A stretch of 62,582 nt of DNA, the filler included. It is 5 parts of 5 records of this genome, joined end to end, with 100 filler letters (N's around TTAATTAATTAA, not from the genome) between each part and the next. Parts side by side here need not be neighbours in the genome. Positions count along the whole stretch, not along the records: positions 22,016 to 43,355 come from SRR20825006_2563; 4 more parts are not named here. One strand, 5' to 3'. How positions within the stretch are numbered: the first letter of the stretch is position 1; each line of letters starts with the position of its first letter. Positions 24,662 to 55,862 of this stretch are shown one piece after another. A program made the translations under genes and the position numbers. A model generated the notes under the pieces. The model was not told where the DNA came from and ran no database searches. It saw only the letters and a program-made list of their open reading frames with translations.

Positions 24662-25297
24662 TTAATCAAATAGTCCAGACTCTATTGCAAATCGTACTGC
24701 GCCAGTTGTAGTTTTAGAACCTGTTTTTAATAGGATATTTTTTCTATGCGTTTCTACTGTATTTACAGAGATAAATAATTTTTCTGAAATCTCTTTAGAA
24801 GTAAGCTCTTCTCCTAAAAGCGCTAAGACATCCTTCTCTCTTGGTGATAGTTCGATGTTTTTATATTTTTTGCGTTCAAAAACACTTTCCATATATCGTT
24901 GTTTTATGAGTTCAGAAAAGTATTGTTCATCATTTAAAACGGAACGTACCGCTTTTTGTAGCTCTTCTTTACTTGTAAACTTCGGAACAAAACCGTCTGC
25001 CCCTTTTTGTATGACTTTATGTACTGTTCTATGATTGTCGAGCATGCTCAACATGATTATTTTTACGTCTTTATGCTTTTTTTTAATTTCTGTAAGCAAT
25101 TCTATACCGTCCATTTTGGGCATACTAATGTCGCTTATAATTAAACCAATTTTAAACTGAGAGAGTAATCTAATAACCTGTTTCCCTTCAGTTGCAATAT
25201 GCACTTCTCCAATTTCGTCCATATTTTTTAAAATGGTATTGATCCCTTCAATGAACATTAAATGATCGTCTGCAATTATAATGTTTGTTTTCTCCAC
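24662..25297 (-). CDS. NarL/LuxR-family response regulator
   Basis: IIADDH, SDISMP phosphoacceptor, LSPREKDVL...KEISEKLFISVNTVETHRKNI LuxR HTH. Confidence 0.95.
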   Translation of the reverse strand: MEKTNIIIADDHLMFIEGINTILKNMDEIGEVHIATEGKQVIRLLSQFKIGLIISDISMPKMDGIELLTEIKKKHKDVKIIMLSMLDNHRTVHKVIQKGADGFVPKFTSKEELQKAVRSVLNDEQYFSELIKQRYMESVFERKKYKNIELSPREKDVLALLGEELTSKEISEKLFISVNTVETHRKNILLKTGSKTTTGAVRFAIESGLFD

Positions 25298-25303
25298 AAT
25301 TTA

Positions 25304-27271: not shown

Positions 27272-27292
27272 TAAAATGTAAACTTAATACCT

Positions 27293-29536
27293 TTAATTGA
27301 AATATGAGGTTCTTATTTTAGATTTGATGTCTTTTAACAATTCTAATTCATTATTTTCTAAATCAATATTTAACTTGAAAATTTGTTCTAATAAATTATG
27401 CAGAAGGAATTTATCAGTTTCAAAGTGCGTTTGTACGACCTCTAAATGTTCTAATAATGCGTTAGCAGAAGGATTCTCTTTACTTAAAAGCATAGCGTTG
27501 TATTTGATGTAATCTCCTTCATTCTCTATAGCTTTAGATAATGTTTTAAGTGTGGCTAGCATCATATTATTATTGTCTTTTGGAAATTCAAAAAACGAAT
27601 AGTCTGGATAGCTTTGTAATAATTGGTTAAAACTAGCTAATGCTTTTTTATAATGCTTCCCTGTTTTTAATAAATCGGCTAACAGATAGTCTGTTTTCCA
27701 GTCACTAGATTCTGGTATCTGGGTTTTAATAATTTGGCAAGCAGCAATACTTTTTGTAGTATTAAAATCCTCTTTAGCGCAACTTAATGCTAGTTTTAAA
27801 TAGTAAGCTTTGTTTGTGGCTAGTTGTGCCGCTTGTTGTAATGCATTTGTAGCAGCACAGATGTTACCTAGCATCCAATATATTAAACCATTGGTTCTGT
27901 ATTCTATAAAAGTAGAAGGTTCTTGTATTAAATCTAGTTCTGAAGCGTCTGCTATATCATCAGGTTTTTCTAAATAATCATAAAAACAAATCCACAGAAA
28001 CACAGGATATAATTCTGGTAATAATTGTCCTTGTTCGTGGTTATATATGGCATATTTGTAACATTCTTGATAATTGCCCATTTCAATAAGGGCTTCAATA
28101 CACATATTCATTGTGCTACAATATTCTGAGTCGCCAATAGTATAATAATTGATTTCTGACTGCATATCTTCAAAAAAAGCCGTGTAGTTATGGTTTTGTT
28201 TATGAATAATCATTCTTAAGTTATACAACCATGGTGCGTAAGAATGAGGTGGTAACGGAAAATCAGAAAGCGCTACATTAATCGTTTCCAGAGCTTCATC
28301 AAATTGTCTTAATTTGACGAGTGCACGTGCTTTAAAAAATAAGGTTTTAAGTGTAGGAGGAGTCCCTTTATGAAACTGAGCAACAATATCTAATATACCT
28401 TGCCAATTTTCAATTCTACTATTTACTTCTAGTAAATAAAATAGATATTCACTCAAACGGAGACCGTTTTTAAATGCTTCGTGGTAATTTACTCCGGTCT
28501 CGTTATAATTATTGACAAAAAAAAAGGATTTTGCCTTTAATACCAATAGTAATGGGTTTTTAGGATTTAAAGCTAAGCCTCTTTCTACACTAATATCTAA
28601 GATTTCTTTATTTTTTGAATAAAAATATGCCGAATTTCCTATCAATACATATTGATGTTGTGCCAATTGCCAGCCAGAAGTAGCAAACGCCTTGATAAAC
28701 GTTTGATATTCCTCAAAATTACTATACTCTTCTTCTGGAAACTCTGGTTCTGAAGGTGCTTTTAAAACTTGAGATACCATATCGTACATCATAAAAGATT
28801 TTGCATAATCTGCCAAGAGCATACGTGTTACTGCTGTCAATTCTAAAAGTTTCCATTCTGTATTCCAATGTTGTTTTATTTCAGTAGACCTTTCTTCCCA
28901 CAGTGCAACCTGTATATAGGCTAAAGTTTGATTTGCTTTATCTAATCGATGATCTAATTGTAATCCTTTTAAAACTTCTTCATTATGAGTAGCCGAAGCT
29001 AATTCTAAAAGTTCATAGCAGTTTGCTTCTTCGTTTGATGCACATAAATGTGCTAATTGAGTTGCTTCAATATCCCAAAGTAAGAATCGAGCTTCTGTGG
29101 AGGCAGGATAACATTCTAGGATATATTTTAAAGTAACAATAGCTTCTTTAAAACGTTTATCTTCTTGTAATTTTAAAGCGTAATGTAGGTGTAAAGTTTC
29201 GTTGTATGGATATAGCATTAAAGCTTCTTGGTACACTGTTTCTTCACATTGTTTGTAATAACTACAAACGTATTCGTAATCTGATGCTTCTACTTCATTA
29301 ATGTTAATTAATGCTTGTAAATAAGACTGCAAAACTTGCATATTCAGTTCTTCATAAATCCCAATATACAGCATATAAATGCGGTAATATTTGGCATAGT
29401 CTGAATTATTAGTTAAAAGCTCTAGGTGCTCTTGTATATTACTAATTACAGGCTGTAAATGCATATAAAGGTTGGTCTTGTACAGTTGTTCTGCACGCTC
29501 AATTTGTTGTATAAGCTCTTGTTCTGTTATCCTCAT
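27293..29536 (-). CDS. TPR/alpha-solenoid protein
   Basis: Helical repeats (e.g. KARALVKLRQFDEALETI); ATG at 29536 overlaps the upstream stop (ATGA). Confidence 0.7.
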   Translation of the reverse strand: MRITEQELIQQIERAEQLYKTNLYMHLQPVISNIQEHLELLTNNSDYAKYYRIYMLYIGIYEELNMQVLQSYLQALININEVEASDYEYVCSYYKQCEETVYQEALMLYPYNETLHLHYALKLQEDKRFKEAIVTLKYILECYPASTEARFLLWDIEATQLAHLCASNEEANCYELLELASATHNEEVLKGLQLDHRLDKANQTLAYIQVALWEERSTEIKQHWNTEWKLLELTAVTRMLLADYAKSFMMYDMVSQVLKAPSEPEFPEEEYSNFEEYQTFIKAFATSGWQLAQHQYVLIGNSAYFYSKNKEILDISVERGLALNPKNPLLLVLKAKSFFFVNNYNETGVNYHEAFKNGLRLSEYLFYLLEVNSRIENWQGILDIVAQFHKGTPPTLKTLFFKARALVKLRQFDEALETINVALSDFPLPPHSYAPWLYNLRMIIHKQNHNYTAFFEDMQSEINYYTIGDSEYCSTMNMCIEALIEMGNYQECYKYAIYNHEQGQLLPELYPVFLWICFYDYLEKPDDIADASELDLIQEPSTFIEYRTNGLIYWMLGNICAATNALQQAAQLATNKAYYLKLALSCAKEDFNTTKSIAACQIIKTQIPESSDWKTDYLLADLLKTGKHYKKALASFNQLLQSYPDYSFFEFPKDNNNMMLATLKTLSKAIENEGDYIKYNAMLLSKENPSANALLEHLEVVQTHFETDKFLLHNLLEQIFKLNIDLENNELELLKDIKSKIRTSYFN

Positions 29537-30192
29537 TTTTTCCATTCTTTAAACCAATCGGCATGTGCTATATGTAAGCGTTGGTAGTGCTCCCAAAGTG
29601 TTTCTGTCCCTGGGAATTTACTAACATCGAGTTCTGTAGCCCCTAAAACGTACTCATCTCCCAAGCACACGTTGCGGTGAAATTCTCCCCAACTAGAAAA
29701 CGTGGACTTTGTAATATTGTAGGCTTCTTCTAAACGCAACATCATTTCTTCTGTTGTTATAAAGTCTAAGACGAGGCCTAATCTCATTTGAAAAATGTAC
29801 ATTGCCATTTCATATCCTCTGAGTTTTTGATTTTTTAAACTGAAACGATATTTCCACACCATTTTGTAGGTGTTTTTGGTTTTAGGACTTTCTAGAGCTT
29901 GGTATTTAGCTTCAAAAGTCTTACTGGTATCATTGCGAAACGCTGCGGCTAATTTTTCAAAAGTATGAGATACCATTTGTCCGCTCTCGTAACGTTGTAA
30001 ACTGTTCCGTAAATGCAAGCCTGATTTAATACCGTACATAGTTAAAAGTCTTTCCGCATGCTTAACGTGCATTGCATCTTTTAGGTTAAAACCCGACCAA
30101 CTTTTTAAGGCTGCGTTTTTATGATTTTTCTTCAAAATCAAGGCCGATAAATTTAATTGGTTCTGAATTTTGGGTGTGATATCTTGTGTCAT
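29533..30192 (-). CDS. DUF1266 (YbeR/YbeU-like) family protein
   Basis: Pattern GYE...RLG...ITTEE...FSSWGEF...LG resembles the DUF1266 C-terminal consensus. Confidence 0.55.
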   Translation of the reverse strand: MTQDITPKIQNQLNLSALILKKNHKNAALKSWSGFNLKDAMHVKHAERLLTMYGIKSGLHLRNSLQRYESGQMVSHTFEKLAAAFRNDTSKTFEAKYQALESPKTKNTYKMVWKYRFSLKNQKLRGYEMAMYIFQMRLGLVLDFITTEEMMLRLEEAYNITKSTFSSWGEFHRNVCLGDEYVLGATELDVSKFPGTETLWEHYQRLHIAHADWFKEWKK

Positions 30193-30195
30193 TAT

Positions 30196-32697
30196 TTAAA
30201 CATTTAAATCTTTAACCACTTGCCGTAGATTAGCTGTTATATGTTCTGGATAGACTCCAGATTTTGTCATAGCCTTTAATCCCATTACGTAGGAATCGGA
30301 CATTTTAGTTCCTTTTACTAAATACACAAATAGGTTTCTGCAAAGCGTGCCGTAGGTTTTTAAATCTGTTTTAGGGGTTAAATTTGTATCGAGCAACGTC
30401 TTATAAAGGGCTTGACTAAATCGTGTTTCGATTCCAGTTTTATCACAATTTATCCAGATTTTAAAGTCGTCTATCTTTTCATATAAACCTGTTAATAACT
30501 GGGTGTCGCATCCTTCCTCTTTATAATTTTCTAGATTATGAAGTACGGCATCTACATACTTTTTATTAATCTCAACGATTTCAATTTCAACTTTAGAGAC
30601 AGGTAATTGTGATACTTCATAATCGGTTTCTGTTGATAATTCTTCTTTAAAATGAAATTGATGTAAATTATTAATAGCAGTAATTAATTTGGATTGTTTT
30701 ATTAAACCAGCTCCATCACTTTTACAATAATTATAGAGATAGTTTATAGTATTTATATTTAGTTTTTCTTCTTTTAATGCTATAAGAAAATCGGTTAAAT
30801 ACAATTCAATTTGTTTAGAAATATTATTGAATATAGGATTGGTTTCTTCCTTGAGCTTACATCGTTTATGAAAATCAATGATACGGTTAATTAATCTTTC
30901 TAAAAAATAGCTAACATCTTCTTTTTCTATATTGAAGAAATTTGCTGTGCGTAAGCCTTGAGTGGTTAATGCTTCTGATACCCAAACAGCCTCCTTGGTT
31001 AGACTATAGAAATAATCGCCTAAATAATTAAACCAAGCTTGTATAAGATTTAAGTTTAACGGACTATTTTCATTGATATAGTGTTCTCGAGCAAAATTGT
31101 TACAAATATCTATAATACAAACATCAATATTTTTTAGTGCCCAAATCTCGTTAACACGTGAGAAATTTACTGGTTCTGCACATAATTTAGCAAGAGTTTT
31201 TACAAGGATAGGTAGATTTTTCTTTCTAATAGAATCACTTACATATCTAGAAGAGTATGCTAATTCTATTAAATATAACTGTAAATATTCTTGTTCTTCT
31301 TTAGTGTATATTAAAGTTAGTTCTTCATTAGCATCATAATAGATGCGTATTAAAAATTGATTTAATGGGTTTTTAATACCTTCCTTTTTAAAGTCTTCAA
31401 GCCACTCTTTTAGGTTATTTTCTGTCTTGAATATTTCGGAAATTAAAAATGTTCCTTTGACTTGAAAATCTGCTCCTTCAAAACGCATTGCAGGAAGTGT
31501 TGCGTGCGTTGTTTCTAGTAGTAACTTGGTGAATATGGGATTTAATAGTTCCCTCTGATTTTTATGACTAGTTTTTGGATGACATTTGTGAAGCCAAAAT
31601 GGAATGCATTCTAACGGAAGTGCTTCTGCTGTGCACTCACTTAAAATTTTAATTCCGTAACCAGTAAAAGCTTCCGAATTCAAATTGCTTCCAGCATCTA
31701 CTAGTAACCAATCTAAAAAATTTAAATAACAACTATCTAACTGTTGCTGCGGTATGTTTTTATCTCGATTGTTGAATAGTAATACATCACCAGCATCCCA
31801 AGTTTTTTTGGCTAAAACATTTATTAAGGGATAATTACCGTTCTTAGTTTGGATATTTAGCAGTTCTAAGCTTTTAGTTTCTCCCCAAATAATACGTTCT
31901 TTTAGTGCTTGATTTGCGAAAATGGCCATCTCTTGGTGGCTTTCATAAAAAGACGCTAAATCAAAACTAAACCAGGATGACATCAAATCGTAAGCGGATG
32001 GAGCATATACAAGACCCACAGGTAATAATTGATGAAACTTTGTGATAAATAGATGCCAATTGCCATCAAAAAAATGCGTGATAAAATGCTTATCAATGGC
32101 AAACGGAATTGTACTTATCGAAAGATCTGTATTTTTAATGGTATATCCTTCTGTTAATAGCTGATGTTTGAGGCAATGCTGAATTATAAAATCTGAGTTC
32201 AATACATCTCGAATATCAAAAATCCTATGAATTAAAAAACACGCCACAGGAAGAGAGGCTTCAGATTTACTCTGAATCAGCAATTTTAAAACTTTAAAAA
32301 GTTGAATTTTTTCTATTTCTGAGGTATCTTCTGACTGAAAATAACTGAGATTGAAGTGTAAAAATTCAAGAAGTTTTCTAGTACTTTTTTTATCAGGATA
32401 AAAACCATTTTCCAAGAGTGGAAGCCAAGACTCAACAAATTTTAAGCCTTGTCTTTCCTTGGCATATATTTTTGGGTGTAAGTAAATACTTTGGGATAGA
32501 TTATTAGTAAAATTAGGGGTTGTAGTATTTGTATCAAAATCCTTTTTTGCATTCTTATAGATTTCATTGTCGGTGGCATGCATTAATTTTAATATCTGAA
32601 GTAATGCTTTTATTTCAGCGCCTTTAAATGATTTTATATTTAATTTAGGAATTATGTGCTCTTTAAAAATAGTAGACATTTGCTGGGTGTTAATCAA
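30196..32697 (-). CDS. Large hypothetical protein (833 aa, helical)
   Basis: Long ORF inside the operon; no recognisable motif; start TTG 32697 or ATG 32679. Confidence 0.75.
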   Translation of the reverse strand: MINTQQMSTIFKEHIIPKLNIKSFKGAEIKALLQILKLMHATDNEIYKNAKKDFDTNTTTPNFTNNLSQSIYLHPKIYAKERQGLKFVESWLPLLENGFYPDKKSTRKLLEFLHFNLSYFQSEDTSEIEKIQLFKVLKLLIQSKSEASLPVACFLIHRIFDIRDVLNSDFIIQHCLKHQLLTEGYTIKNTDLSISTIPFAIDKHFITHFFDGNWHLFITKFHQLLPVGLVYAPSAYDLMSSWFSFDLASFYESHQEMAIFANQALKERIIWGETKSLELLNIQTKNGNYPLINVLAKKTWDAGDVLLFNNRDKNIPQQQLDSCYLNFLDWLLVDAGSNLNSEAFTGYGIKILSECTAEALPLECIPFWLHKCHPKTSHKNQRELLNPIFTKLLLETTHATLPAMRFEGADFQVKGTFLISEIFKTENNLKEWLEDFKKEGIKNPLNQFLIRIYYDANEELTLIYTKEEQEYLQLYLIELAYSSRYVSDSIRKKNLPILVKTLAKLCAEPVNFSRVNEIWALKNIDVCIIDICNNFAREHYINENSPLNLNLIQAWFNYLGDYFYSLTKEAVWVSEALTTQGLRTANFFNIEKEDVSYFLERLINRIIDFHKRCKLKEETNPIFNNISKQIELYLTDFLIALKEEKLNINTINYLYNYCKSDGAGLIKQSKLITAINNLHQFHFKEELSTETDYEVSQLPVSKVEIEIVEINKKYVDAVLHNLENYKEEGCDTQLLTGLYEKIDDFKIWINCDKTGIETRFSQALYKTLLDTNLTPKTDLKTYGTLCRNLFVYLVKGTKMSDSYVMGLKAMTKSGVYPEHITANLRQVVKDLNV

Positions 32698-32721
32698 AAA
32701 TTATTTTCTTTTTTAATACAT

Positions 32722-33774
32722 CTACTGGGCTGTATAAAACCATTCATGATCCTCAATTTCACCTTCATTATTTAGTAAACTTTTTAGAAATGTATGTAAG
32801 TTGTCTGCATGGATATATCCAATTTCTTGATCGGCACCATAACGAATAATTTGCCCAGCAGTACCTTTGGTATTAGGTGCAAAATCGAAGGCTAAAAAAT
32901 TGCCATTACTTAAATCAAAAAATGGAATCCAATAAGGGGTAGTGTACATTAATAATGCTTTTCCTTGATTTGTAGTGTACGTATCTAGCAACTCTTCTTG
33001 CGTCCAATCATCATAGATAGCTTTCCATTGTTTCCATTCTTTGTAAATTGTTTCAGCACCCATTATGGCGCATCTGTCAATACCATTATGCAAGCTTAGG
33101 TACGCTTTGATAATTTGTGGAAAAGGAAATCCCGCTTCTTTTTCAAAAGCATCATAAATGGCATCGTTATTTGTCGGAGAATTTATGGTTAACCCTTTAG
33201 CCTTAATTAAGGTTTCAAAGGTTTGCTTTACTTCTTCAATATTAATTTGTGCTTTTAATTGAATATAAGGATTTAAAAAATCAGCCTTTTCTTTAGCCAA
33301 TTGTTCAGCTATAAACTCATTTGGAATAAATTGATTAATAAAATCCCCTGTATTTTCATGAAAAGTCATATGCTCTAAATTAGTAATCGGTTGTGAGCTA
33401 TAACTACTATGACTGAAGTTATAAATAGTAGAAATAAGATCTTTATCCTTTTCATCATCTATAGCCGTAAACCATTCTTTAAATAATGGCGTGTTTTCTA
33501 TTGTAAGCGGGAAAACTATTTTACCTTCTAAATAAGCAATTATGTAGAATTTATAAACAGTTTTATAATCTGGAGTAATGAAAAGAAGCTTAGAAACTTT
33601 CTTTCCAGATACTTCTTCAACGGCCTTTATAAGTGAATCTCTAAAAATAAAACAGTTGTTATAGTGTCTTGGATCTTTAAGAGCTGAAAGGGTGTTTATT
33701 TGAATAGTTTTGAAATTAAAATCATTCCACTTCAGTGCTTTAAAACCTTCTGAATATAATATGGGATTGTTCAT
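32722..33774 (-). CDS. SMI1/KNR4 (SUKH) family protein with N-terminal extension
   Basis: C-terminal FEKEAGFPFP...YLSLHNG...WIPF...GNFLAFDFAP...GTAGQII, a Knr4/SUKH signature. Confidence 0.85.
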   Translation of the reverse strand: MNNPILYSEGFKALKWNDFNFKTIQINTLSALKDPRHYNNCFIFRDSLIKAVEEVSGKKVSKLLFITPDYKTVYKFYIIAYLEGKIVFPLTIENTPLFKEWFTAIDDEKDKDLISTIYNFSHSSYSSQPITNLEHMTFHENTGDFINQFIPNEFIAEQLAKEKADFLNPYIQLKAQINIEEVKQTFETLIKAKGLTINSPTNNDAIYDAFEKEAGFPFPQIIKAYLSLHNGIDRCAIMGAETIYKEWKQWKAIYDDWTQEELLDTYTTNQGKALLMYTTPYWIPFFDLSNGNFLAFDFAPNTKGTAGQIIRYGADQEIGYIHADNLHTFLKSLLNNEGEIEDHEWFYTAQ

Positions 33775-33798: not shown

Positions 33799-33878
33799 CT
33801 AAGGTACTTTGAACTAATGAGTTCTTTATCCCTGAAACTAATGATTTTGAAAATAACGAAATACTTCTAGAGAGTGAT
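33799..33878 (-). promoter_or_regulatory. Island box + -7-like element for the SMI1 operon
   Basis: ATCCC-TGAAACTA-ATGAT (33828-33845), 21 nt from TACCTTAG (revcomp of 33799-33806); second box ATACT-N8-GTGAT at 33861-33878. Confidence 0.6.
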
Positions 33879-33991
33879 GCATCAGAATTACTTTACGGTA
33901 TAATGGAAATTTAAATACACCAAGGCTTGCCTTGGATCTAAAAATACATTTTTTATAAAATGCCTAATGCGTTGGCAATTGGCATACTGAT

Positions 33992-35125
33992 TTATTTTGA
34001 AATAACTTTGATACATTGGCGTTTAGGTCCATAACTACCGTAAACTGTTTTGAATTTAGTTTTTACTTTTTGAAGTAAGCTTTCACATGAAAAATCCGGA
34101 AGTTGATCTAGGCATGTCAATATTAAATATTTATTAATTTTTAAATTTTGATAATGAATAGAGTCACAACTTAAGGCGTAATTAAGTAATTCATGATCCA
34201 ATGCCTTGGTCCTAAACTCCCCTTGAAATTCGTTGGTGATATTTGCTTCATTTTCATTATTCAAAAGTGTTACAGCTTCCGTGTTAGACATAGGTCCATT
34301 ACCATGACGGGTTTGATAACAACGCGTAATGTAATAGATGTCTATTTCCGCTGAAACACTTAAATGTTTTTTTATAAGCTGAATAGCATTTTTAGATGTG
34401 GTGTAGCTCCAAGTGGTATGTGGATAAAAACCGTGTTGGGTATCTAATAGAATACCCTGACTACCTTCAAAAATAAAATGCTCATAAGTGAATGCTAACT
34501 CTGAAAGTGAGGCTACATTATAAAACTTCTGGATGGCTATACAGCAATTTATGAAGAAGTCTTCATCGTATTCTTTTAATTCATTATGGTAATACGCTTG
34601 AACACTTTTGTTCTCGGTTTTTAGTTTATGTTGGTAGTAGGTTTTAATGCTTTGTAAACGCTGCTTCAAAACCCATTGAAATTTTAAATCATTGGCATAT
34701 AAATAAACTTCTTCCTTGTTTCGAGCGATTGTTGTTCCAAAGCCCAAGCCACAAGACCCGTGATGTTGTTGTTTTTCAATGGCTCGATTATAGGCTATGT
34801 CATAAATGGTAGTTACCATAGCCAATGGATTTAAGTATAATTTAGGCTGGTATGTTTTTAGAAAATTCCCTTCTTTTAGAATCCCAGGTGGGAAAAGAGT
34901 GGTATTTTCAGTATAATAAGTAGGTACTCCTAATAACGTACCCGAACCAAAATTACTAAAGGTATGCGTAAGTTCTTTTGTGCTAACAGTATGGCCAATT
35001 TGATGACCTCCAGAAAATCGAACGATGATACTTTTTTGAGGACACTGAGATGCCAGAAAATCTGTTGTTAAGCCTTTTCCGGCATCACCAAATCCCAAAT
35101 CTATAACAAGACTACATTTTTGCAT
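33992..35125 (-). CDS. Divergent adenylosuccinate synthetase (PurA)-like protein
   Basis: DLGFGDAGKG P-loop, GGHQIGHTV, FEGSQGILLD, YQTRHGNGP, TCLDQL, SYGP; shorter than canonical PurA and lacks the TTGR aspartate loop. Confidence 0.85.
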   Translation of the reverse strand: MQKCSLVIDLGFGDAGKGLTTDFLASQCPQKSIIVRFSGGHQIGHTVSTKELTHTFSNFGSGTLLGVPTYYTENTTLFPPGILKEGNFLKTYQPKLYLNPLAMVTTIYDIAYNRAIEKQQHHGSCGLGFGTTIARNKEEVYLYANDLKFQWVLKQRLQSIKTYYQHKLKTENKSVQAYYHNELKEYDEDFFINCCIAIQKFYNVASLSELAFTYEHFIFEGSQGILLDTQHGFYPHTTWSYTTSKNAIQLIKKHLSVSAEIDIYYITRCYQTRHGNGPMSNTEAVTLLNNENEANITNEFQGEFRTKALDHELLNYALSCDSIHYQNLKINKYLILTCLDQLPDFSCESLLQKVKTKFKTVYGSYGPKRQCIKVISK

Positions 35126-35992
35126 TTATAGCATATTCTCTACTTTAATATCTGAACTCCCAGAAGCATTAAATCTATTGGTAGCGGCACCTGGTTTATG
35201 GTTGTTAATGACCACTTCTGCAATCCGTTTTGCCACGGATTTAAAATCTGGTATTTCCATATAATTTTCGCCTAAAAGCGTTTTCCAATTTCCCTTACGT
35301 TTTTCTTGCTTAGACAATTCATTATGTTCTAAATGCATATGAAAAACATTGTATTTCTCTTGAGCCTCTTTAATAATGGCTTCTGTAGTTATGGTTTCTG
35401 CCTCATCTGCAAGGGTATATCTCTTTATAATTTCAGCAGGAATGTCAGAAGAAACAGGTTCATCACCAATGGTAAATAAAAATCCTTTTTGTTGTCTTTT
35501 TTCCCAACAATCAATCGATGTATGTCTTGCAGCAAATAAATGTGCTAGATTATAGCCTTCTTGATTGTTTCCACCTCCGCCACCTTCTAAATAAACTCGG
35601 GTTAACCAACGGTCTAATAACTCTGCTGATGACTCAAATTGTCCAACTTGTAATGGTGCATTATCATAAATAAAATCTCCAATGCCTAAAAATAACACTT
35701 GTGGATGTTCAATACCAGCTTCCATTAAAGAACCAATAAGGTCTGGCAAAGCTTCTTTTACAATATGCTCTGGCACAAACCCCATACTTCCTGTTACATC
35801 TAAAGCAACAATAATAGAAAGCGTTTCAGGATGTTCCTCAGAATCTCGAGACTCTCTAACTATTACTTTTGTAGGATCCATTTCAGGATCTATTTGTCTA
35901 GCCGTAAAAATTTCTTCTCTAGATTTATTACTGTAGCCTTTAGATTTTCTCAATCGAGAATACGCATCGTGACTAAATCTTCCTCCTCCCAT
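35126..35992 (-). CDS. vWA (MIDAS) domain protein
   Basis: ALDVTGSMG MIDAS motif, LQVGQFES, EGGGGGN..EGY, FTIGDE. Confidence 0.8.
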   Translation of the reverse strand: MGGGRFSHDAYSRLRKSKGYSNKSREEIFTARQIDPEMDPTKVIVRESRDSEEHPETLSIIVALDVTGSMGFVPEHIVKEALPDLIGSLMEAGIEHPQVLFLGIGDFIYDNAPLQVGQFESSAELLDRWLTRVYLEGGGGGNNQEGYNLAHLFAARHTSIDCWEKRQQKGFLFTIGDEPVSSDIPAEIIKRYTLADEAETITTEAIIKEAQEKYNVFHMHLEHNELSKQEKRKGNWKTLLGENYMEIPDFKSVAKRIAEVVINNHKPGAATNRFNASGSSDIKVENML

Positions 35993-35994
35993 AG

Positions 35995-36345
35995 TTATAA
36001 TTCGTTTATTGTTCCACCAAATAAATGTAAATAACGTTTTTTGGCTAATTCTAATTTTATTTCTAAGTTCCTTATTTTTACAGACATTTCGATGTCTTTT
36101 GCTACGTAATCTTTCGCATTAAAATCGGATGCTAAGACCAGACTGTTGGCATCTGTAGGGCTCATATCAAGCATATTTTCTTGTTCACGTTTTAAGCGTT
36201 TTAGCGATAATGCCAAATCTTCGGTTTCACGTTTGTACATTAATTGTGCATCTTCTGCAATTGCATGCGCACGATCGTCTCTTATTTTTTCGTTATTGCG
36301 TTTTAATGATGCTATAAACGCTGCACTCTTTACTTGATCTTCCAT
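35995..36345 (-). CDS. Small coiled-coil hypothetical protein
   Basis: 116 aa, charged helical; first gene of a tight 3-gene operon. Confidence 0.75.
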   Translation of the reverse strand: MEDQVKSAAFIASLKRNNEKIRDDRAHAIAEDAQLMYKRETEDLALSLKRLKREQENMLDMSPTDANSLVLASDFNAKDYVAKDIEMSVKIRNLEIKLELAKKRYLHLFGGTINEL

Positions 36346-36361: not shown

Positions 36362-36522
36362 CAAATTTAGAGCTAATCTTTTTAGATTTTATCCCCGAAA
36401 TAGGGGATTTTTGGCTTTTTAGTATATGCGTTAATTTAAATAATTCTAAAAAGGAATAGCTTCAAGATATAAAATATCACGGAAGATAGGGATTAAAAAT
36501 ATAGATTAAGCTATTATTTTTG
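36362..36522. promoter_or_regulatory. Divergent pair of island boxes + -7 elements
   Basis: Minus: ATCCC-CGAAATAG-GGGAT (36391-36408), 21 nt, TAAATTTG (36362-36369). Plus: ATCAC-GGAAGATA-GGGAT (36476-36493), 21 nt, TATTTTTG (36515-36522). Confidence 0.75.
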
Positions 36523-36540: not shown

Positions 36541-37446
36541 ATGATTGCGTTACATTTATCTCCAAAAGGTTTTCAAATAAATTCAAGAATGGTTGAGTTT
36601 CCAGTGTCTTTGGATGTGTTAAAAGACCATTTAACTAAAAATTATCGAACCTTAAAGAAGAAAAACAATACTATTTTTACTTGGGATGATCTAGGAATAT
36701 TGGCTTACTCAAAAAGTGGGGAACTTATAGAATCTATAATTATAGAATTACAACCTGAAACCTATGACTTTAGTCCAAAAAAAGCATTTTCAGGGATATT
36801 TCATTACAACAATCAAGAAATTGTAAGCTACTATAAATCGCATAAAAACCAGCATATAAAATTATTTAAAAATGATGATAGTGGTGCTTTAGTCTCGAAT
36901 GGCATTAGTGCTTGGTTTGATATGAACGAAGACACCGTTAGCGCAATAGAAATAAGTGCTTACAAACCGTATGTGCGTTGGGAAGGAATACCGGAAGATA
37001 AATACAAAATTAAGCGACTTGATGAAGAAGTTATTACTTTCGAAGATTTTGGATTTAAATTATCGGTTATTGAAGAGCTAATGTATACTAAAGAATTGTT
37101 GAAGCCTCAATTTGATATTCACGAATTTGCAAAATGGTATAGAGGTCGCGAGATAGATATTGATGAGGAAGGTTACGGGCCTATTGCTGAAGTAGAACAA
37201 TATTTTAAAGATTTACCAATCCCAAAGCGTTTGGCTGAAGAAGTTACAGAAATCTATCAAGATGGCGGAAACGAAATTTATATGAATTTAGCTCCTTTTT
37301 CTGGTGGAGCAGTGGAGTATTGGGATATTGAACACAGTACCGATGCAAAACAGTTCCCTAATTTAAAAAAAGCAACCTTATGCTATGCTAAAGATACTAT
37401 TTATGATGAGTTTATTGAAATGGGTATTGATACAGAATGGTTGTAA
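36541..37446 (+). CDS. DUF6892-like domain protein (putative immunity-type)
   Basis: C-terminal FEDFGFKLSVIEELMY...LKPQFD...YQDGGNEIY...FPNLK; N-terminal TWDDLGI motif. Confidence 0.6.
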   Translation: MIALHLSPKGFQINSRMVEFPVSLDVLKDHLTKNYRTLKKKNNTIFTWDDLGILAYSKSGELIESIIIELQPETYDFSPKKAFSGIFHYNNQEIVSYYKSHKNQHIKLFKNDDSGALVSNGISAWFDMNEDTVSAIEISAYKPYVRWEGIPEDKYKIKRLDEEVITFEDFGFKLSVIEELMYTKELLKPQFDIHEFAKWYRGREIDIDEEGYGPIAEVEQYFKDLPIPKRLAEEVTEIYQDGGNEIYMNLAPFSGGAVEYWDIEHSTDAKQFPNLKKATLCYAKDTIYDEFIEMGIDTEWL

Positions 37447-38061: not shown

Positions 38062-41000
38062 TTAGCTATTTATTTGCGCTAAAATTGTTGGATCTTGTAT
38101 TTTATGATCTTCTGAAAGTAATTTCATTTTAGAAATAATTTCTGCTGATTTGGGGTCGTCGTCTATAAATGGTAAAAACATACGACCTCTATGCTGACTA
38201 TGCACTGGAATGATAGATAATGCAAGTCCGTTTTTGCTTACCTGACCACTTCCTAAATGTATGGTGTATTCGCCAAATGTACCTTTTATAAATATGTAAC
38301 GTTCTTTTACGGTACTATTTTTAAGTTTGAATAAGCTTGCTGAAGCTGTAGCCAATGCAGCACGCATTTGTATAGTACTATGGCTGGCTTCTGGATCTAC
38401 TCCACCAACGTGAGCAACACTAACTACAAGATCGATGTCTCTCATTATTTCACTAAATATTACCGGTGGAATTTCAGAGAGAGGAATGGTTTTATAGTTT
38501 TCTATAGAGTGAAAACGAATATCCTCCAAGGTTGGTGCTTCGGCATCTGATGGGGAATACCAGTCGGCCATAGCATACATTGTAGCTATAAAACCGTATT
38601 TATGATAAACTTTTTGTAAGCCATCTTCCATACTCACGGTCCAACCACGACCTCTTAAAAGTGCTACGGTTTTTTTAGGCTGAATTTGATATCCTTGGTA
38701 ACGTTCTGAGCGGTTACTATGTTCACGCTCATCATTGGTTATTAAATATAATTCTCTAAAAACTTGTTTAAATGGTTGGGTAATCCGTTCTGCAAATAAA
38801 TATTTTTGGTAGCTATCCCATTCAACTACTTGGAACAAATGAGAAGCATGTGCAATAAGCAAAACATCATCTTCAGCTAACGAATGTGTTTTTCCATGAA
38901 AATCTGTTAAAATACCTTCATCATAAAAACCTGAAATCTCTTTTTGAGGAACGTACATTACTAACTTACTCAACATCACTTGTACAATAGGATGTTGCAT
39001 CATACTATGAATTTCTAAAGCAGTAAATTCATCTTCGTTGACCATTGCGTTTTCTAATGATAAACGTGTTCTACTGTATTGTCTAGAAAGATAGGTTTTG
39101 TTGTCTTTTAAGGCTATAACCTGTTTTTCTTTGCGTAGTTTGGCTGGAATATTTTTTAATAATTTTCCAGCTTTGGAAACCTTAATCTCTGTTTTACCAT
39201 GGTTTGTAATGACGAGTTCTATAACCGTTTCATCTATGGTTATAACTGCATTTTTCATTATTGCTTGGGTAGCTTTTGCTTCCATAGCCCAACTAAAACG
39301 CACACGATCTTGGTAGCCCGCATTTCGAGATAAATTATCTAAAGCAATCTCCACTGCAATAGCTTCGCTTTCTTGTCGTTGTTGACCAAACTGTTTACTT
39401 TCTTTTAAAAAGTCTTGTAGTAGATTGTAGCGTTTTAATAAATCTTTTTCTGGAACGGTTTTACTTAAAGGAATTAATCCTAATGCGCGCACGTAATCTT
39501 TATCACGTTTTTCTTTAATTTTTTGTAGGGTTTCGGTAATTTTAACTTCCCCTAGTATAACACTAGAGTATAATTTTACTTGTCTGTGTCCATTACCATC
39601 TGTAATATATTTTGCAGCCTTATGAAGTAGTTTCCAGTTTGCTTTACCTAAGCTATTATATACTTTATTAAACCAATCGATATCTATTGCGCCTAACGAG
39701 AAATCGTTTTTTGGGATGTTAGAGTACCGGGAAATAATAGTTTCTTTTTCGCTATTCATATAATCTGAAGCGTGCGCTTGAAACCACCAAACAGCATTTT
39801 CTAAATTATCAATTTTTAAATATTGGCCCACAACACTAGCCCACTGCGTAGCATAACACGCCAATTCTATAAAACGTATTTTGCTAATTTTTAAAGCATC
39901 TGCAAGACTAGCAAAATCAGCATAAGATTCGGTGTCTTTAAACTGGGTCATTTTGAGGATAGCACTAAACTTAGACTTTTTACTATCTCCATAATAGCTG
40001 TACCCGCGCTCAAAAGTTTCTTCTCCTAAACGTTCTAGAACTCTGAATACATAATCAACACCTTCAACTCTATGAATTGCATTAATGTAATTAGAAGCAG
40101 GTGTTGCCAAATCTCCTCGTTCTAACTCTGTTTCTAATAAATTGGTTTTTAAAGGGAGAAAGACTTCTTTAGGAATTGTATTTTGCTTTAATCCATTTTT
40201 GTAATTCATCCTATAATTAAAACCACCATCAATAATGGTTATTAATTGATTTTTATTTAAAGCTTGGAGAAGTAAATCATCGTTGTTAATTAAACCGTTT
40301 TCATATAGTTTTAAGGTGGTTTCAATCTCAGGAAATTCCAGATTACTTCTTTTTTCTGAATTATCAGTAAGCACTTTAATATTTGAAGCAACTGTAGGGT
40401 GTGTAATGTTTTGTGCTATTAAATACATTTTAATATTCCAGTACTTTAAAAGTTGCTCTGAAGTAAGTTGGTTTAAATTATTGACACTAAAATTTGGGGT
40501 TAATTGAAGTATTATACTTGTCCAATTATAAGTTGTTGTATAATGGTAACCATTATCTTGAAACTTTATTAATTTAAATTTATCAGGGAAATTAGCAATC
40601 ATGTCTTCGAACATATGAAGTTTAAAGTCGGCTACTGTGCTGGTGTCTACATATGCCCTAAATAAACGCTTTAAAATTTTGTTATAACTATTTAACCTAG
40701 AGTAATGGGTGTCTTTATTTCCTATACTTAATCCAGATAAGTCTGGGTAATATTGCCTTAAAAATGGTTCTAATATTTTATAATATCCGTAAGGGTAACT
40801 ACTATTATTGATATAACGTATGGCAGCATACATTTCAAAATCATTGAGCTCACTTTTTTTATACCATTCTATCCATAAGTGGGCTAAAGGAATATTATGC
40901 AAATGGTCTTCTGCTGTAGCATCATCCCTCAATTCTTTTATTTGGTGAAGCCCTTTCTCTATATATGTAGTATGCATTTCTCCTTGATACCCTTCCATTT

Positions 41001-43062
41001 GGTATTCATAATGTCGGTTTTCGGTAACAAGAGCAATCAATAGATTTACTTGAGTAACTATTTTGTTGACATTAATAAATTCTTTAAACTTAAAGGATGA
41101 AGAGTCTGAGGTTGAAATTCCTAATTTATCTAAAAAACTAGTTTTTGTTTTAAAATGAGATTGTGGAATATAAAGTGGTGATAAATCATCATAATTTACC
41201 GCTCCAAAACCATTATTATAATTATATTCTTGCGTATTGTTTGAAAACTTATCTAAATAGACTTGTTCGTTTTTAGAGATTTTAGGACGCTCGTTATAAA
41301 GGCTTATTTGCGTTTCAATAAAATCCGATTGTCTATTGGCGTCGTGTAAAATAGTTAATACTTCTAAACCAGCTAATCGCTGATCAATATTTTTTGCTGT
41401 TACTAAATTTGTAACACTCTTTCTTAAGCGGTCTACTGGCAAGTCAACCAACAACTGAATTAAAGAGGTACGTAATCCTTTATGTTTTCGTCTTAGTAAA
41501 TCTTCAGCAATTTCCAAATCTGCGTCATACAAATGCATTTTACTAAATAAATTCAATCCCGTAGCCATAACTACCTCATTTCGGTTATAAATAGCACGTC
41601 TAGCTAAAGCTCTTTTCCAAAAATTTTGGTCATAATTGAGGCGCTCTTTTTTCTTAGACTGTTGCTGATAATTATTAAAAGAATAGCTATAATGTAAAGG
41701 AAATACTTTACGAATATAGGTTTCTCTATATTCTGTAGGAAATTCTTCAAAATCGTTCGCCATTAACTCTAATTGTGCTTCTGTAGCGCTATTGATAATA
41801 AACTGGAAGAAATACGTTGGTTCAGGTGTAAAGCTCCACCACGAGAATATTTTACTTTCGAAGGTTTTGCCTTTTTCTGTCACAGATTTTGCAACCGTTA
41901 ATAGGCGCTCAAAAGTATCATTATTTAATGTGGTAGGAGGTAAGTTTACCGCCATCCAATGGTCTAATGCATAATCTTTTCCTAGCTCTTTAGTAAAATA
42001 TGGTACTAAGGCATCATTAGTACGCTCTGTTTTCCAAATAAAATACAATGCTAAAATCTTCTTGTTTCTATCTTCGGAAGAGAAAACTATATCTAGTGCT
42101 TTCCTATTTGCTGTATCGACGTCTAAAATTCCTATAGCCCATAAACCGACTAAAACTTCTAAATTGTCTTTACTTTTAAGATAGCCATCTACTTCTTTTA
42201 AATTTAAAATTAAAGATTGTGCAAGTGTTAAAACACGATTTATAACTGGTTTTTTAGGGAGATCCCATCTTAAGCCAAACCAAGTACTAACAGCTCTAGT
42301 TACACTACTAAAGCGTGTTAAATCATTTTCTAATACCACATTGATTATATGTTTAAGCGCACCAAGACTAGACTCGTCTAGCGATTCTAAAATGGTTTGC
42401 CTTAAACCTTCTTGGCGTTGAGCCGCAAGTAATAATTTAGAGACCATCTCCCAATGTTTTTCCTCATCAGAAAGTAACAGCGCTTTAATAATATCTGCAC
42501 TAATTCCTCCAATTTCATCTTCACCTTGAATAATATTGTCTAGTAATTCATCGAAAACTCCTTCGGCATTGTGAAGAACTGAGGCTAAAAAATAACTGCT
42601 AAAATTAGGATGATACGTACTGTATATAAAGTGTTCTTGAAGTGTTAATCCATTATAACCCATTCTACTAAATTGTAAAAATCGGATTAAGTAATTTATT
42701 TTATTAATTAAAATATCTTTTGATGGTTTTGATCTAAATGCTTGTCTATCATAACCTTTTTGATAAGGTAGTGTGTTCATAAAATCCCACATGCCAGCTA
42801 GATAAGGTGCATGTACCACCCCGTAAAGTTGCATTGCTAGGCGCATACCTTCTTCATTCGACCAAGGATTTATAGTAAGCGGATCATCAAATGCTGCAAT
42901 AAAATCTGAAACATTATACCATACTCTTTCTTCTTTTTCGATTCTTCCTAATATTTTCCCTAAAATTTTATAAGGTTCAGAGAACAACCGAAATTCAAAA
43001 CGGTCTACTTCTGGTTTTTGATGTTTTTCGATGTATTTATTAGCGTCTTCTATTGGAATCAT
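38062..43062 (-). CDS. Giant DUF5724/DUF4132 (MolR-like) protein
   Basis: 1666 aa; LLLAAQRQEGLRQTILE, ESKQFGQQRQ, QPFKQVFRELY, FSEIMRDIDLVVSVAH, IHLGSG, LPFIDDDPKSAEIISK. Confidence 0.8.
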   Translation of the reverse strand: MIPIEDANKYIEKHQKPEVDRFEFRLFSEPYKILGKILGRIEKEERVWYNVSDFIAAFDDPLTINPWSNEEGMRLAMQLYGVVHAPYLAGMWDFMNTLPYQKGYDRQAFRSKPSKDILINKINYLIRFLQFSRMGYNGLTLQEHFIYSTYHPNFSSYFLASVLHNAEGVFDELLDNIIQGEDEIGGISADIIKALLLSDEEKHWEMVSKLLLAAQRQEGLRQTILESLDESSLGALKHIINVVLENDLTRFSSVTRAVSTWFGLRWDLPKKPVINRVLTLAQSLILNLKEVDGYLKSKDNLEVLVGLWAIGILDVDTANRKALDIVFSSEDRNKKILALYFIWKTERTNDALVPYFTKELGKDYALDHWMAVNLPPTTLNNDTFERLLTVAKSVTEKGKTFESKIFSWWSFTPEPTYFFQFIINSATEAQLELMANDFEEFPTEYRETYIRKVFPLHYSYSFNNYQQQSKKKERLNYDQNFWKRALARRAIYNRNEVVMATGLNLFSKMHLYDADLEIAEDLLRRKHKGLRTSLIQLLVDLPVDRLRKSVTNLVTAKNIDQRLAGLEVLTILHDANRQSDFIETQISLYNERPKISKNEQVYLDKFSNNTQEYNYNNGFGAVNYDDLSPLYIPQSHFKTKTSFLDKLGISTSDSSSFKFKEFINVNKIVTQVNLLIALVTENRHYEYQMEGYQGEMHTTYIEKGLHQIKELRDDATAEDHLHNIPLAHLWIEWYKKSELNDFEMYAAIRYINNSSYPYGYYKILEPFLRQYYPDLSGLSIGNKDTHYSRLNSYNKILKRLFRAYVDTSTVADFKLHMFEDMIANFPDKFKLIKFQDNGYHYTTTYNWTSIILQLTPNFSVNNLNQLTSEQLLKYWNIKMYLIAQNITHPTVASNIKVLTDNSEKRSNLEFPEIETTLKLYENGLINNDDLLLQALNKNQLITIIDGGFNYRMNYKNGLKQNTIPKEVFLPLKTNLLETELERGDLATPASNYINAIHRVEGVDYVFRVLERLGEETFERGYSYYGDSKKSKFSAILKMTQFKDTESYADFASLADALKISKIRFIELACYATQWASVVGQYLKIDNLENAVWWFQAHASDYMNSEKETIISRYSNIPKNDFSLGAIDIDWFNKVYNSLGKANWKLLHKAAKYITDGNGHRQVKLYSSVILGEVKITETLQKIKEKRDKDYVRALGLIPLSKTVPEKDLLKRYNLLQDFLKESKQFGQQRQESEAIAVEIALDNLSRNAGYQDRVRFSWAMEAKATQAIMKNAVITIDETVIELVITNHGKTEIKVSKAGKLLKNIPAKLRKEKQVIALKDNKTYLSRQYSRTRLSLENAMVNEDEFTALEIHSMMQHPIVQVMLSKLVMYVPQKEISGFYDEGILTDFHGKTHSLAEDDVLLIAHASHLFQVVEWDSYQKYLFAERITQPFKQVFRELYLITNDEREHSNRSERYQGYQIQPKKTVALLRGRGWTVSMEDGLQKVYHKYGFIATMYAMADWYSPSDAEAPTLEDIRFHSIENYKTIPLSEIPPVIFSEIMRDIDLVVSVAHVGGVDPEASHSTIQMRAALATASASLFKLKNSTVKERYIFIKGTFGEYTIHLGSGQVSKNGLALSIIPVHSQHRGRMFLPFIDDDPKSAEIISKMKLLSEDHKIQDPTILAQINS

Positions 43063-43177: not shown

Positions 43178-43355
43178 ATTTTTTAATACAGATTTTACTA
43201 AAATTTAGAATATCACAGAATCTATGGCCAATAGTTTTTAAAAGCGCTTTGTAAAATTAAAATGAATTATAGTAATGTTATAAAAGAGTTTCAGCTCTAT
43301 TACTTAATTTCTTGGAAATGGAAACTGAAGTTTTCAATATGTTTCTTTGCGGTTC

Positions 43356-43455: not shown

Positions 43456-44089
43456 AGCGCCAATGCCTACAGCTTCAACTTCTCAAATTCTAGGAAACAA
43501 CGAATGTTTTGAGCCATATACCTCTAATATTTATACCAGAAGAGTACTTTCTGGGGAGTTTATAGTTGTAAATAAGCATTTGTTAGAAGATTTGGTTGAT
43601 TTAGGATTATGGACCGAAGAATTGAAGCAAGAATTAATGCGTGCTAATGGTTCTATTCAACATATTGAAACCATTCCGCAGGACATTAGAGATTTATATA
43701 AAACGGTTTGGGAGTTAAGTATGAAAGATATTATCGATATGTCTCGACACAGAGGATACTTTATCGACCAGTCGCAATCTCTTAACCTGTTTATGGAAGG
43801 GGCAAATTACGCCAAACTTACTTCAATGCATTTTTATGCATGGAAAAGCGGACTTAAAACGGGAATGTATTATTTAAGAACTAAATCGGCAGTAGATGCT
43901 ATTAAGTTTACTTTGGATAATACTAAGAAAACGGAAAAAGTACCAGCAGAAGCGGCCGAGGTTAAGGCATCTGTAGCTGGAAAAGCAGCGCCTGTAGCAG
44001 TAGAACCGTTATCGCCACAAGAATTAAAAGAAATGTTGGCAAAATCGAGAGATGCTGAAGACGACGATTGTTTAATGTGTGGATCTTAG
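43456..44089 (+). CDS. nrdA: Ribonucleotide reductase class Ia alpha subunit, 5'-truncated
   Basis: [32 protein letters not shown]-terminal CLMCGS. Confidence 0.93.
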
Positions 44090-55530: not shown

Positions 55531-55862
55531 CTTACAAAAATACAAACAAAGCATTATTATTTTGCATAATTTGTCTCTAAGTTCAATGCCTTAGTTGTAA
55601 GCTTTTATTAGCTGAAGTTGAATTTGATTTTTTTATTTGAAGCTCTATTGAAGGATTTATTTTAAAAAGGAGTCATCACCAAAAAGAAAATGAATAAAGC
55701 AAAGGTTTTATAGTAATTTCAGTTTAGTCTTTTCTCTTTTTTCTTACAACGAAGCGGTCTTATTTCTTTGTCCAGATTGTACTGTATATTTATATGAAAT
55801 ATTGAAATAAATACTTGTTCTTGCTGAAAAATATTTTTATTTCAAATTGTATCTTTGTTTTT

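Follow-up and report, generated by a model that had tools for sequence, protein, structure and literature searches.

An adenylosuccinate-synthetase-like enzyme encoded with a vWA protein in a probable accessory operon common to bacteria and large phages

We analyzed a 62,582-nucleotide stretch of DNA (hereafter the window, meaning the whole stretch, which consists of five parts joined end to end) in which three minus-strand genes follow one another: a gene for a small helical protein (cc), a gene for a protein with a von Willebrand factor A (vWA) domain and a metal ion-dependent adhesion site (MIDAS), and a gene for an enzyme that resembles adenylosuccinate synthetase (PurA-like). It is very probable that the three genes are one self-contained accessory operon common to bacteria and large phages, in which the enzyme is neither PurA nor its phage paralogue PurZ and the vWA protein is an obligate partner. 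An earlier reading made from the letters alone (the sequence-only reading) had described three genes with gaps of 2 and 0 bp, and these matched the open reading frames (ORFs) and the junctions exactly. Read directly from the sequence, the cc and vWA genes meet as TAA-CT-ATG, with a 2-base gap, and the TAA of the vWA gene is followed by the ATG of the PurA-like gene with a 0-base gap. That no pur genes lie nearby also held, since no purine-biosynthesis family was found among the 19 ORFs annotated between 20285 and 46160.

The distribution of the operon was determined with a vWA peptide-pattern scan that kept one genome per species and gave 64 bacterial loci, from Bacteroidota, Gammaproteobacteria, Spirochaetota, Actinomycetota, Planctomycetota, Myxococcota, Acidobacteriota and others. 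These loci were picked by the vWA gene alone, and in all 64 it is followed by a PurA-like gene, far more often than chance would give. In viruses, 105 contigs were confirmed and 80 were kept, many of them 100-350 kb long; the PurA-like gene comes after the vWA gene in 79 of the 80, and the single exception is cut at the contig end. In addition, the vWA gene is present in 218 isolate phage records (among them 200 of Mycobacterium, 10 of Rhizobium and 6 of Vibrio), and in all three of these phage groups the PurA-like gene is adjacent to it or one gene away. The vWA protein forms at least 7,970 clusters at 90% identity and occurs in 21 plasmid records, mostly megaplasmids, and cc has 862 database relatives. 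The cc gene was found in 49 of the 64 bacterial loci, in all of those with a vWA protein at least 55% identical and in none below 50%, and in 55 of the 80 viral contigs. Taken together, these results establish that the vWA and PurA-like genes are the invariant core of a conserved, mobile three-part module, and they bear out the statement of the sequence-only reading that such pairs occur in other phyla. That the module proteins bind each other physically is something we infer from gene linkage alone. Full-text literature searches returned no description of the module.

The gene-neighborhood analysis that had been proposed thus found the vWA linkage conserved, with heterogeneous flanks outside Flavobacteriaceae. 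Among 103 flanking ORFs from 31 such loci, no Pfam family exceeded three ORFs, and PADLOC gave few generic matches on the same ORFs (PD-T4-6, 4; MkoA, 4; Csa3, 3). Some individual neighbors were recorded: a HIRAN-domain gene lies directly 5′ of the vWA gene in Rhizobium phage RHph_TM30 (L003, 5679-5996), TROVE/Ro60-like genes were found close to the module in 13 viral loci, and TerD and P-type ATPase genes close to it in another 12.

The PurA-like protein matches PF00709 over residues 7-341 (120 bits against a cut-off of 27), and its PDB sequence matches reach 6e-19. Its best database match is 99% identical and carries the source label Galbibacter orientalis, and public sources label the protein adenylosuccinate synthetase. 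The family match and the public label would suit an ordinary second isozyme for AMP synthesis, which is nevertheless a highly improbable reading. The scores against the NCBIfam purA equivalogs fall well below their cut-offs (TIGR00184, 81 bits versus 395.55; NF002223, 96.5 bits versus 402), and the aspartate-site residues and R143 are lost, as described below. Moreover, canonical purA is also present in five of five module-bearing genomes checked across several phyla (547-604 bits), which answers for relatives the earlier call to look for a separate canonical purA. The nearest genome carries canonical purA alone (572 bits). Among 121 Flavobacteriaceae genomes, canonical purA was found in 120 and a second complete copy in three, and all three second copies sit in cc-vWA-PurA-like triads.

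A phylogeny against PurA and PurZ had likewise been proposed. In a quick maximum-likelihood search, canonical PurA and PurZ fall on one side (SH-aLRT 90) and the vWA-linked enzymes on the other; this tree leaves out 23 near-duplicate Flavobacteriaceae rows and rows shorter than 330 aa, and one of its "canonical" rows (L071) is a mis-picked ORF that is to be disregarded. PurZ (succino-amino-deoxyadenylate synthase, NF038379; for example gp27 of Vibrio phage phiVC8) resembles the window enzyme as a repurposed PurA paralogue with a short form of the fold and the same PHROG label, whereas it groups with canonical PurA in the tree, and the phiVC8 record has no annotated vWA gene. PurZ still uses aspartate. 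A PurZ-type enzyme making precursors of 2-aminoadenine (Z) for modified DNA has a very slim chance of being the right description. It would draw on the match to PHROG 1211 (1.2e-50, labeled "2-aminooxy adenylosuccinate synthetase") and on the same label in the GenBank records of phage relatives, but this label appears to be family-wide naming. The PurZ model NF038379 gave 34.2 bits against a cut-off of 300, over residues 200-280 only; phiVC8 PurZ has S13 and R305, whereas the vWA-linked clade has D13 and no R305; and the module occurs in bacterial chromosomes without adjacent replication genes. No datZ, mazZ or dpoZ turned up among the annotated ORFs between 20285 and 46160, in which no search was aimed at them. 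The proposal that the enzyme is a PurA paralogue repurposed outside purine biosynthesis is therefore upheld by the scores below the equivalog cut-offs, by the loss of the aspartate-site residues and by its presence as an extra copy in relatives.

Residues were compared in an alignment of 19 vWA-linked enzymes (the window's, 15 other bacterial and three phage proteins) with three references, E. coli PurA, a canonical flavobacterial PurA and phiVC8 PurZ, using E. coli PurA numbering. As in PurA (EC 6.3.4.4; E. coli structures such as 1ADE), to which the window enzyme is homologous over about 335 residues, the P-loop G-D-x-G-K-G is present; all 19 enzymes retain its G12, D13, G15, K16 and G17, together with H41, Q224 and T239. 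D333 was found in 18 of 19 and S414 in 15 of 19, and the S-x-G-P guanine motif is kept. Because the P-loop, D13, H41, Q224, T239, D333 and S-x-G-P are retained, GTP-driven activation of a purine O6 is the likely first half-reaction. Unlike PurA, the window enzyme has 377 rather than 432 aa and lacks R131, T300, T301, R303 and R305, which we take to be the L-aspartate site of E. coli PurA, as well as R143, which presumably clamps the 5′-phosphate of IMP across the dimer. Positions 131, 143 and 305 are arginine in none of the 19 enzymes and R303 falls in a gap in all of them; each of the 19 has E, G, D, P, C or N at position 143. Uncharged residues (F, W, L, Q and others) stand in place of the arginines that presumably bind the aspartate carboxylates, T300 and T301 have given way to [FWYH]-Q, whose Q is present in 19 of 19, and the aspartate loop is four residues shorter than in PurA when read from the raw sequences. 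Clade-specific swaps were also found, N38 to Q and T129 to C (18 of 19 each) and V273 to H (19 of 19), and a 24-sequence alignment gave a set of clade invariants that includes H122-G-S-C-G, R273-H-G-x-G, Q301, R305 and C338-L-D-Q in the numbering of the window protein. A further difference from PurA is that the clade is always encoded after a vWA gene, and that it occurs in genomes that have a canonical purA elsewhere.

These residues show that the PurA-like enzyme is a neofunctionalised branch of the adenylosuccinate-synthetase family that has kept the GTP site and the O6-phosphorylating residues and has lost the aspartate pocket. The pattern reads as GTP-driven activation of a 6-oxopurine that has been kept, together with a second substrate that is new and an altered grip on the 5′ end of the nucleotide. 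The degraded second-substrate site could also be taken to mean that the protein is a GTP-dependent switch, which senses GTP and a purine nucleotide and regulates the vWA and cc proteins with no product. Many members of the SIMIBI class of P-loop GTPases, PurA's own class, are switches, and the non-enzymatic partners are more conserved than the enzyme, both of which would fit. Against a switch, all 19 enzymes retain D13, H41 and Q224, and the new invariants Q38, C129, H273 and Q301 line the former substrate site, which points to re-tooling rather than decay; we consider a switch improbable.

The vWA gene had been recognized from a DVTGSMG motif, and this was confirmed at residues 65-71, where all 20 homologues aligned share D65, T67, G68, S69, M70 and G71. 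The MIDAS D65-x-T67-x-S69 is a Thr-for-Ser variant of D-x-S-x-S, and T158 and D177, which are invariant too, may belong to the same site. Other conserved motifs are M-G-x-G-x-[FYW] at the N-terminus, RESRDSxEHP, GQFESS, GGGN, FTIGDEP and a C-terminal ...ML. Pfam gave no family for the protein at E≤0.01, and a PDB sequence search gave no match with a single sequence or with a profile; PHROG 2971 was matched at 1.8e-44. The AF2 model (pLDDT 72, pTM 0.77) gave 331 PDB matches at E≤0.001 in Foldseek, with a TM-score to the target of about 0.6. Among the top matches listed were, by title, CMG2, TEM8, integrin I domains and BatB, and also a TFIIH subunit and pilus adhesins, which presumably carry vWA domains. 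The 288-aa protein is thus predicted to have the vWA fold.

The N-terminal motif M-G-x-G-x-[FYW] is kept in 21 of 21 vWA partners of all subtypes, phages included, although four of these N-termini were set manually at an internal M-G (two over-extended and two trimmed ORFs); M1, G2 and G4 are also invariant in 20 of 20 independently called vWA database proteins. This conservation raises another scheme, protein purinylation, in which the vWA protein's own N-terminal Gly, after removal of Met, would attack a 6-phosphoryl purine where aspartate otherwise does and form an N6-linked nucleotide-protein conjugate, the protein counterpart of adenylosuccinate. The swap of the aspartate-carboxylate arginines for uncharged residues and the strict adjacency of the vWA and PurA-like genes, which suits an enzyme-substrate pair, would fit as well. 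However, the manual placement of the four N-termini weakens the count, no covariation was seen by eye between the aromatic residue of the enzyme loop and that of the vWA N-terminus, a conserved N-terminus has many other possible causes, and a stoichiometric substrate would be unusual. Purinylation is in our estimate quite unlikely.

The third component had been called a coiled-coil protein of 116 aa. The ORF is where it was placed, and the model gives a helical hairpin (helices at residues 2-59 and 77-109, pLDDT 85) with a highly conserved loop at residues 57-75 (N-M-L-D-x-S-P...S-L-x-L-A-x-D-F). No relatives of cc were found in Pfam, PHROG, PADLOC or the PDB. The best match of a PDB profile search had E 0.12, Foldseek gave no match at E≤0.001 and returned generic helical hairpins only, and the best score in the ESM Atlas was 0.79, below the lead threshold. 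Measured as median identity to the window's proteins, cc is the best conserved of the three: the values for cc, vWA and PurA-like are 89.5, 84.4 and 74.8% in 31 Flavobacteriaceae loci, 70.0, 63.2 and 47.3% in 18 loci of other bacteria, and 58.1, 47.7 and 38.0% in 42 viral contigs.

A kinase-like gene replaces cc upstream in five distant bacterial loci (Planctomycetota and other phyla) and in phage Rizal, and it was found in five of the 80 viral contigs. The bacterial protein, a homologue of mycobacteriophage Rizal gp250 (28% identity, E 2e-23), reads H-G-A at the position where protein kinases, as we take it, carry H-R-D, and because of this substitution it is probably inactive. A kinase-fold protein beside a cytoplasmic MIDAS vWA protein makes this variant of the module resemble the TerY-P triad (Gao_TerY), which consists of a vWA protein, a Ser/Thr kinase and a PP2C phosphatase. 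Unlike that triad, the module has no phosphatase, its kinase-like partner carries H-G-A and its constant partner is PurA-like; the window operon has neither kinase nor phosphatase, with the 116-aa hairpin instead, and gave no PADLOC TerY match.

Neighboring genes in part of the loci point to NAD+ and ADP-ribose metabolism. In one Flavobacteriaceae locus (L083, 2230-9327), Prs-like, Macro, ADP-ribosylglycohydrolase and Tpt1/KptA genes, the triad and a NAMPT-like gene lie on the same strand, and in another (L084, 2839-8663) Metallophos, NADAR and DUF4291 genes, the triad and a NAMPT-like gene do so. The Pfam signatures of the NAD+ reconstitution pathway NARP1, as given in its preprint, are PF14572 for one component and PF04095 with PF18127 for the other, and the Prs-like and NAMPT-like pair of L083 carries them (bioRxiv 10.1101/2024.02.11.579819). 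In one viral group, NAMPT-like and NadE genes lie directly 5′ of the vWA gene and an IMPDH/GMP-reductase-like gene lies 3′ of the module; a few more viral loci have homologues of NADAR, Prs-like or NadE genes. NARP1, NARP2 and NARP3 thus have neighborhoods in common with the module elsewhere (L083 and the viral group), whereas Adps (Prs-like) and Namat (NAMPT-like) of NARP1 were not matched in the window and occur only beside more distant triads. The chemistry would differ as well, since the NARP pathways rebuild the ribosyl-nicotinamide bond and the module would activate a purine C6. No vWA or adenylosuccinate-synthetase-like gene is mentioned in the main text of the NARP1 preprint (10.1101/2024.02.11.579819) or in that of the NARP3 paper (PMC13464706).

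In addition, NrtR-like genes adjoin five bacterial loci (L034, L042, L050, L052 and L057), and three of these (L042, L052 and L057) have repeated palindromic boxes in the intergenic region examined. In two metagenome-assembled genomes (MAGs) of Actinomycetota, palindromes of the TTGTCA-N-TGACAA type sit between a divergent NrtR-like gene and the cc gene: a single one with one mismatch at 5464-5487 of L050, and two at 5553-5573 and about 5590-5607 of L052. The L052 boxes fit GT-N7-AC, which we take to be the core of the NrtR box. In L034 the NrtR-like gene is 3′ of the module and the only palindrome is A/T-rich. For the operon of the window itself, control by NrtR is not supported: the window has no NrtR homologue, and the operator described below does not show the GT-N7-AC core.

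Our preferred explanation combines these lines. The PurA-like enzyme would spend GTP to activate C6 of a hypoxanthine-type nucleotide whose 5′ end is probably further substituted, as in an NTP or a dinucleotide of the NAD/ADP-ribose type, and an amine that is not aspartate would then displace the activated oxygen. Most likely, a deaminated adenine nucleotide would be re-aminated or tagged in this way. The vWA protein would be the obligatory partner, binding through its MIDAS metal site, and the helical hairpin would be an exchangeable third subunit, replaced by the kinase-like protein in other lineages, that gates or targets the pair. The setting would be a conflict centered on nucleotides or NAD+, between phage and host or between toxin and immunity. 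As a whole, with the accessory module, the GTP-driven C6 chemistry and the NAD/nucleotide conflict setting taken together, we regard this explanation as plausible and short of an even chance. The chemical part by itself, that is, C6 activation of a hypoxanthine-type nucleotide, an amine that is not aspartate and a 5′ end that is not a simple monophosphate, is a tentative suggestion drawn from the residue pattern. A bolder reading is rather unlikely. In it the enzyme would carry out a type of reaction without earlier description, either conjugation of a purine nucleotide through C6 to the vWA N-terminal Gly or one-step re-amination of nucleotides or dinucleotides that contain hypoxanthine (ITP, deamino-NAD, IDP-ribose), and would constitute a new conflict or repair pathway with the hairpin or the pseudokinase as its gate. 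Salvage of damaged purines after toxin attack, which the sequence-only reading had offered among its possibilities, is compatible with the data.

Several points weigh against the explanation that we prefer. The substrates, the product and even the ligase activity are read from conserved residues, and the kept D13, H41 and Q224 could serve a reaction that is not an amination. D13 and H41 are presumed here to be the catalytic base and acid, and the roles assigned to Q224 and D333 are likewise those presumed for E. coli PurA. The alignment over the aspartate loop is gapped and possibly shifted by a few positions. The top conservation of the small hairpin is without an explanation in the favored model. 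In the 62.5 kb of the window, none of 10 query proteins for NAD/ADP-ribose genes was matched, and in three related genomes the NrtR-family genes lie about 0.9 Mb from the module. NAD-linked neighbors were found in 7 of 67 bacterial loci only, and the main NAD-linked viral group consists of 9-10 near-identical contigs from one sample. Finally, a metatranscriptome library of marine origin contains a single 168-nt contig that agrees letter for letter with the 3′ part of the vWA gene (35138-35305); it hints weakly at expression in nature and may be DNA carry-over.

The upstream region of the operon was compared in 32 Flavobacteriaceae upstream regions (features of the window are listed in Table 1). 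The alignment revealed an 18-bp palindrome, ATCMC-N8-GGSAT, of which two copies lie upstream of cc. In the window this operator occurs three times against 0.39 expected, twice 5′ of cc and once 5′ of the SUKH-1 gene. We scanned 32 Bacteroidota loci (31 of Flavobacteriaceae and Fulvivirga L033) and found 104 matches, compared with none in a reversed-sequence control; the operator lies 5′ of cc in 31 of the 32 loci, 5′ of the c3/SUKH-1 gene in 28, and also 5′ of further island genes (clusters c7, c9 and c12). In four whole genomes there were 20 matches against four in the control. Taken together, these results suggest that in this lineage the operon is apparently co-switched with neighboring SUKH-1 genes through a common palindromic operator. 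A half-site-like sequence, TTCTGTGATATT, was also seen at 43209-43220, 147 nt 5′ of a gene for a 1666-aa protein (38062-43062, minus strand; DUF5724, DUF4132 and DUF7737); the 12-mer search that it belongs to was at chance (7 versus 4.5 expected).

The sequence-only reading had also given the operon its own promoter box. At this position the 32 upstream regions reach an 80% consensus, TAACTTTGT, so the box stands as a conserved element, whereas the motif itself is not enriched: TAnnTTTG, which we take to be the Bacteroidetes -7 consensus, occurs at chance level in the window (89 found versus 93 expected), and because of this the support for the box is its conservation alone. A scan for sigma-70-type promoters gave 7 matches versus 13.6 in shuffles, with a model that is ill-suited to Bacteroidota. 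Terminator-like sites in the region number three against 1.5 expected, which is weak by itself. No Rfam family was found in the whole window, and thus no known riboswitch. The flanking genes proposed earlier, SMI1/KNR4 and DUF6892-like, are both where they had been placed, and 195 bases separate the cc gene from the DUF7738+DUF6892 gene.

Table 1. Features of the operon and its surroundings in the window (positions count along the whole stretch)
Feature	Position	Strand	Remarks
cc gene	35995-36345	-	116-aa helical hairpin; from the ORF listing and the predicted model
vWA/MIDAS gene	35126-35992	-	288 aa; from the ORF listing, homologue alignment and AF2 model
PurA-like gene	33992-35125	-	377 aa, putative GTP-dependent ligase; from PF00709 and the residue alignment
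Distal operator, ATCCCTATCTTCCGTGAT	36476-36493	-	Copy of the 18-bp palindrome; position kept in Flavobacteriaceae upstream regions
Proximal operator, ATCCCCTATTTCGGGGAT	36391-36408	-	Copy of the 18-bp palindrome, immediately 5′ of the promoter box
Bacteroidetes-type -7 promoter box, TAAATTTG	36362-36369	-	17 nt 5′ of the cc ATG
Terminator-like hairpin, CCAAGGCAAGCCTTGG, with T-rich tail	33920-33935	-	57 nt 3′ of the PurA-like stop codon
Third operator copy, ATCATTAGTTTCAGGGAT	33828-33845	-	54 nt 5′ of the SUKH-1 gene
SUKH-1 (SMI1/KNR4) gene	32722-33774	-	350 aa; apparently co-regulated with the operon in Bacteroidota
DUF7738+DUF6892 gene	36541-37446	+	Divergent; operator-bearing intergenic region in common with the operon
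TPR histidine kinase gene	25304-27271	-	Pair with the response regulator spans 24662-27271
LuxR/GerE response regulator gene	24662-25297	-	Adjoins the TPR histidine kinase gene

In this lineage the operon sits in a conserved island (recorded at 24662-33774, and in loci L005-L032) with two SUKH-1 genes, DUF1266, DUF1963, HD_4 and DUF6892 genes, a gene for an 833-aa protein without a Pfam match, a TPR histidine kinase and a LuxR regulator. Several island genes are preceded by the module's 18-bp operator. We take SUKH-1 to be a family of immunity proteins, and DUF1266, DUF1963, DUF6892 and HD_4 are presumably families of immunity-gene arrays. The neighboring SUKH-1 gene matches a PADLOC candidate model (PDC-M40A, 5.7e-14). 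The kinase and regulator clusters (c11 and c18) keep a place next to the module in several loci of Flavobacteriaceae and in Fulvivirga, and we infer from this position only that the TPR histidine kinase and the LuxR-type regulator are candidate regulators of the operator.

The island bears on a role in defence, which the sequence-only reading had put forward. In such a role against phages or competitors, the vWA protein would sense an invader and switch on the enzyme, which would produce a signal or a toxic or modified purine nucleotide. The patchy occurrence of the module (3 of 121 Flavobacteriaceae genomes), its presence on megaplasmids (21 plasmid records) and its place in a SUKH-1/DUF1266/DUF1963 island of presumed immunity type, with an operator in common, all fit this, as does the kinase and vWA variant, which calls to mind the TerY-P triad. 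However, PADLOC-DB v2 gave no match for cc or the PurA-like protein and only AbiEii for the vWA protein (16.5 bits, E 0.0015), no flank family is enriched among the 103 ORFs outside Flavobacteriaceae in Pfam or PADLOC, and there is no linked effector such as a nuclease or a pore-former. Large phages carry the module at least as often, and its high frequency in lytic ones is a better fit to a function that benefits the phage. An anti-phage defence module is therefore not what these results favor, and we consider this role unlikely; because of the 218 isolate phage records and the 105 viral contigs, a phage-beneficial or counter-defence role is as likely as host defence.

Three other features of the window were recorded. 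From 56300 to 62582 the G+C content rises from about 0.32 to 0.56-0.58, over genes for an EamA transporter, a glyoxalase-family protein, DUF123, an FAD monooxygenase and a MoaA-like radical-SAM protein; this segment was either acquired recently from a foreign source or joined from two organisms during assembly. At 43463-44089 (plus strand), the match of a 208-aa ORF to the ribonucleotide reductase large-subunit barrel is confined to the final 137 positions of the barrel (387-523 of 523), and the ORF looks like a gene fragment or remnant. At 55815-56312 (plus strand) lies a gene for a 165-aa zinc deaminase (dCMP_cyt_deam_1/MafB19-like), whose size and family would fit a tRNA adenosine deaminase.

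In PurA chemistry an oxygen of a purine is phosphorylated and an amine then displaces the phosphate; to our knowledge, it has so far served AMP synthesis and, in phages, the Z-base pathway, and nothing else. A PurA-type branch that has discarded aspartate and gained obligatory protein partners would be a third branch, and a large one. In marine Bacteroidota, the common operator would define a regulon unnoticed before that ties the module to SUKH-1 genes. If the bolder reading above is true, the module would represent a pathway tied to nucleotide or NAD damage that occurs in bacteria as well as in hundreds of large phages, about 200 cluster C-type mycobacteriophages among them. The module is small and conserved and occurs in tractable systems (cluster C phages of Mycobacterium smegmatis, Vibrio and Rhizobium phages, and marine Flavobacteriaceae), and solving its substrate would add a new nucleotide transformation and probably a new player in the NAD+/nucleotide arms race.

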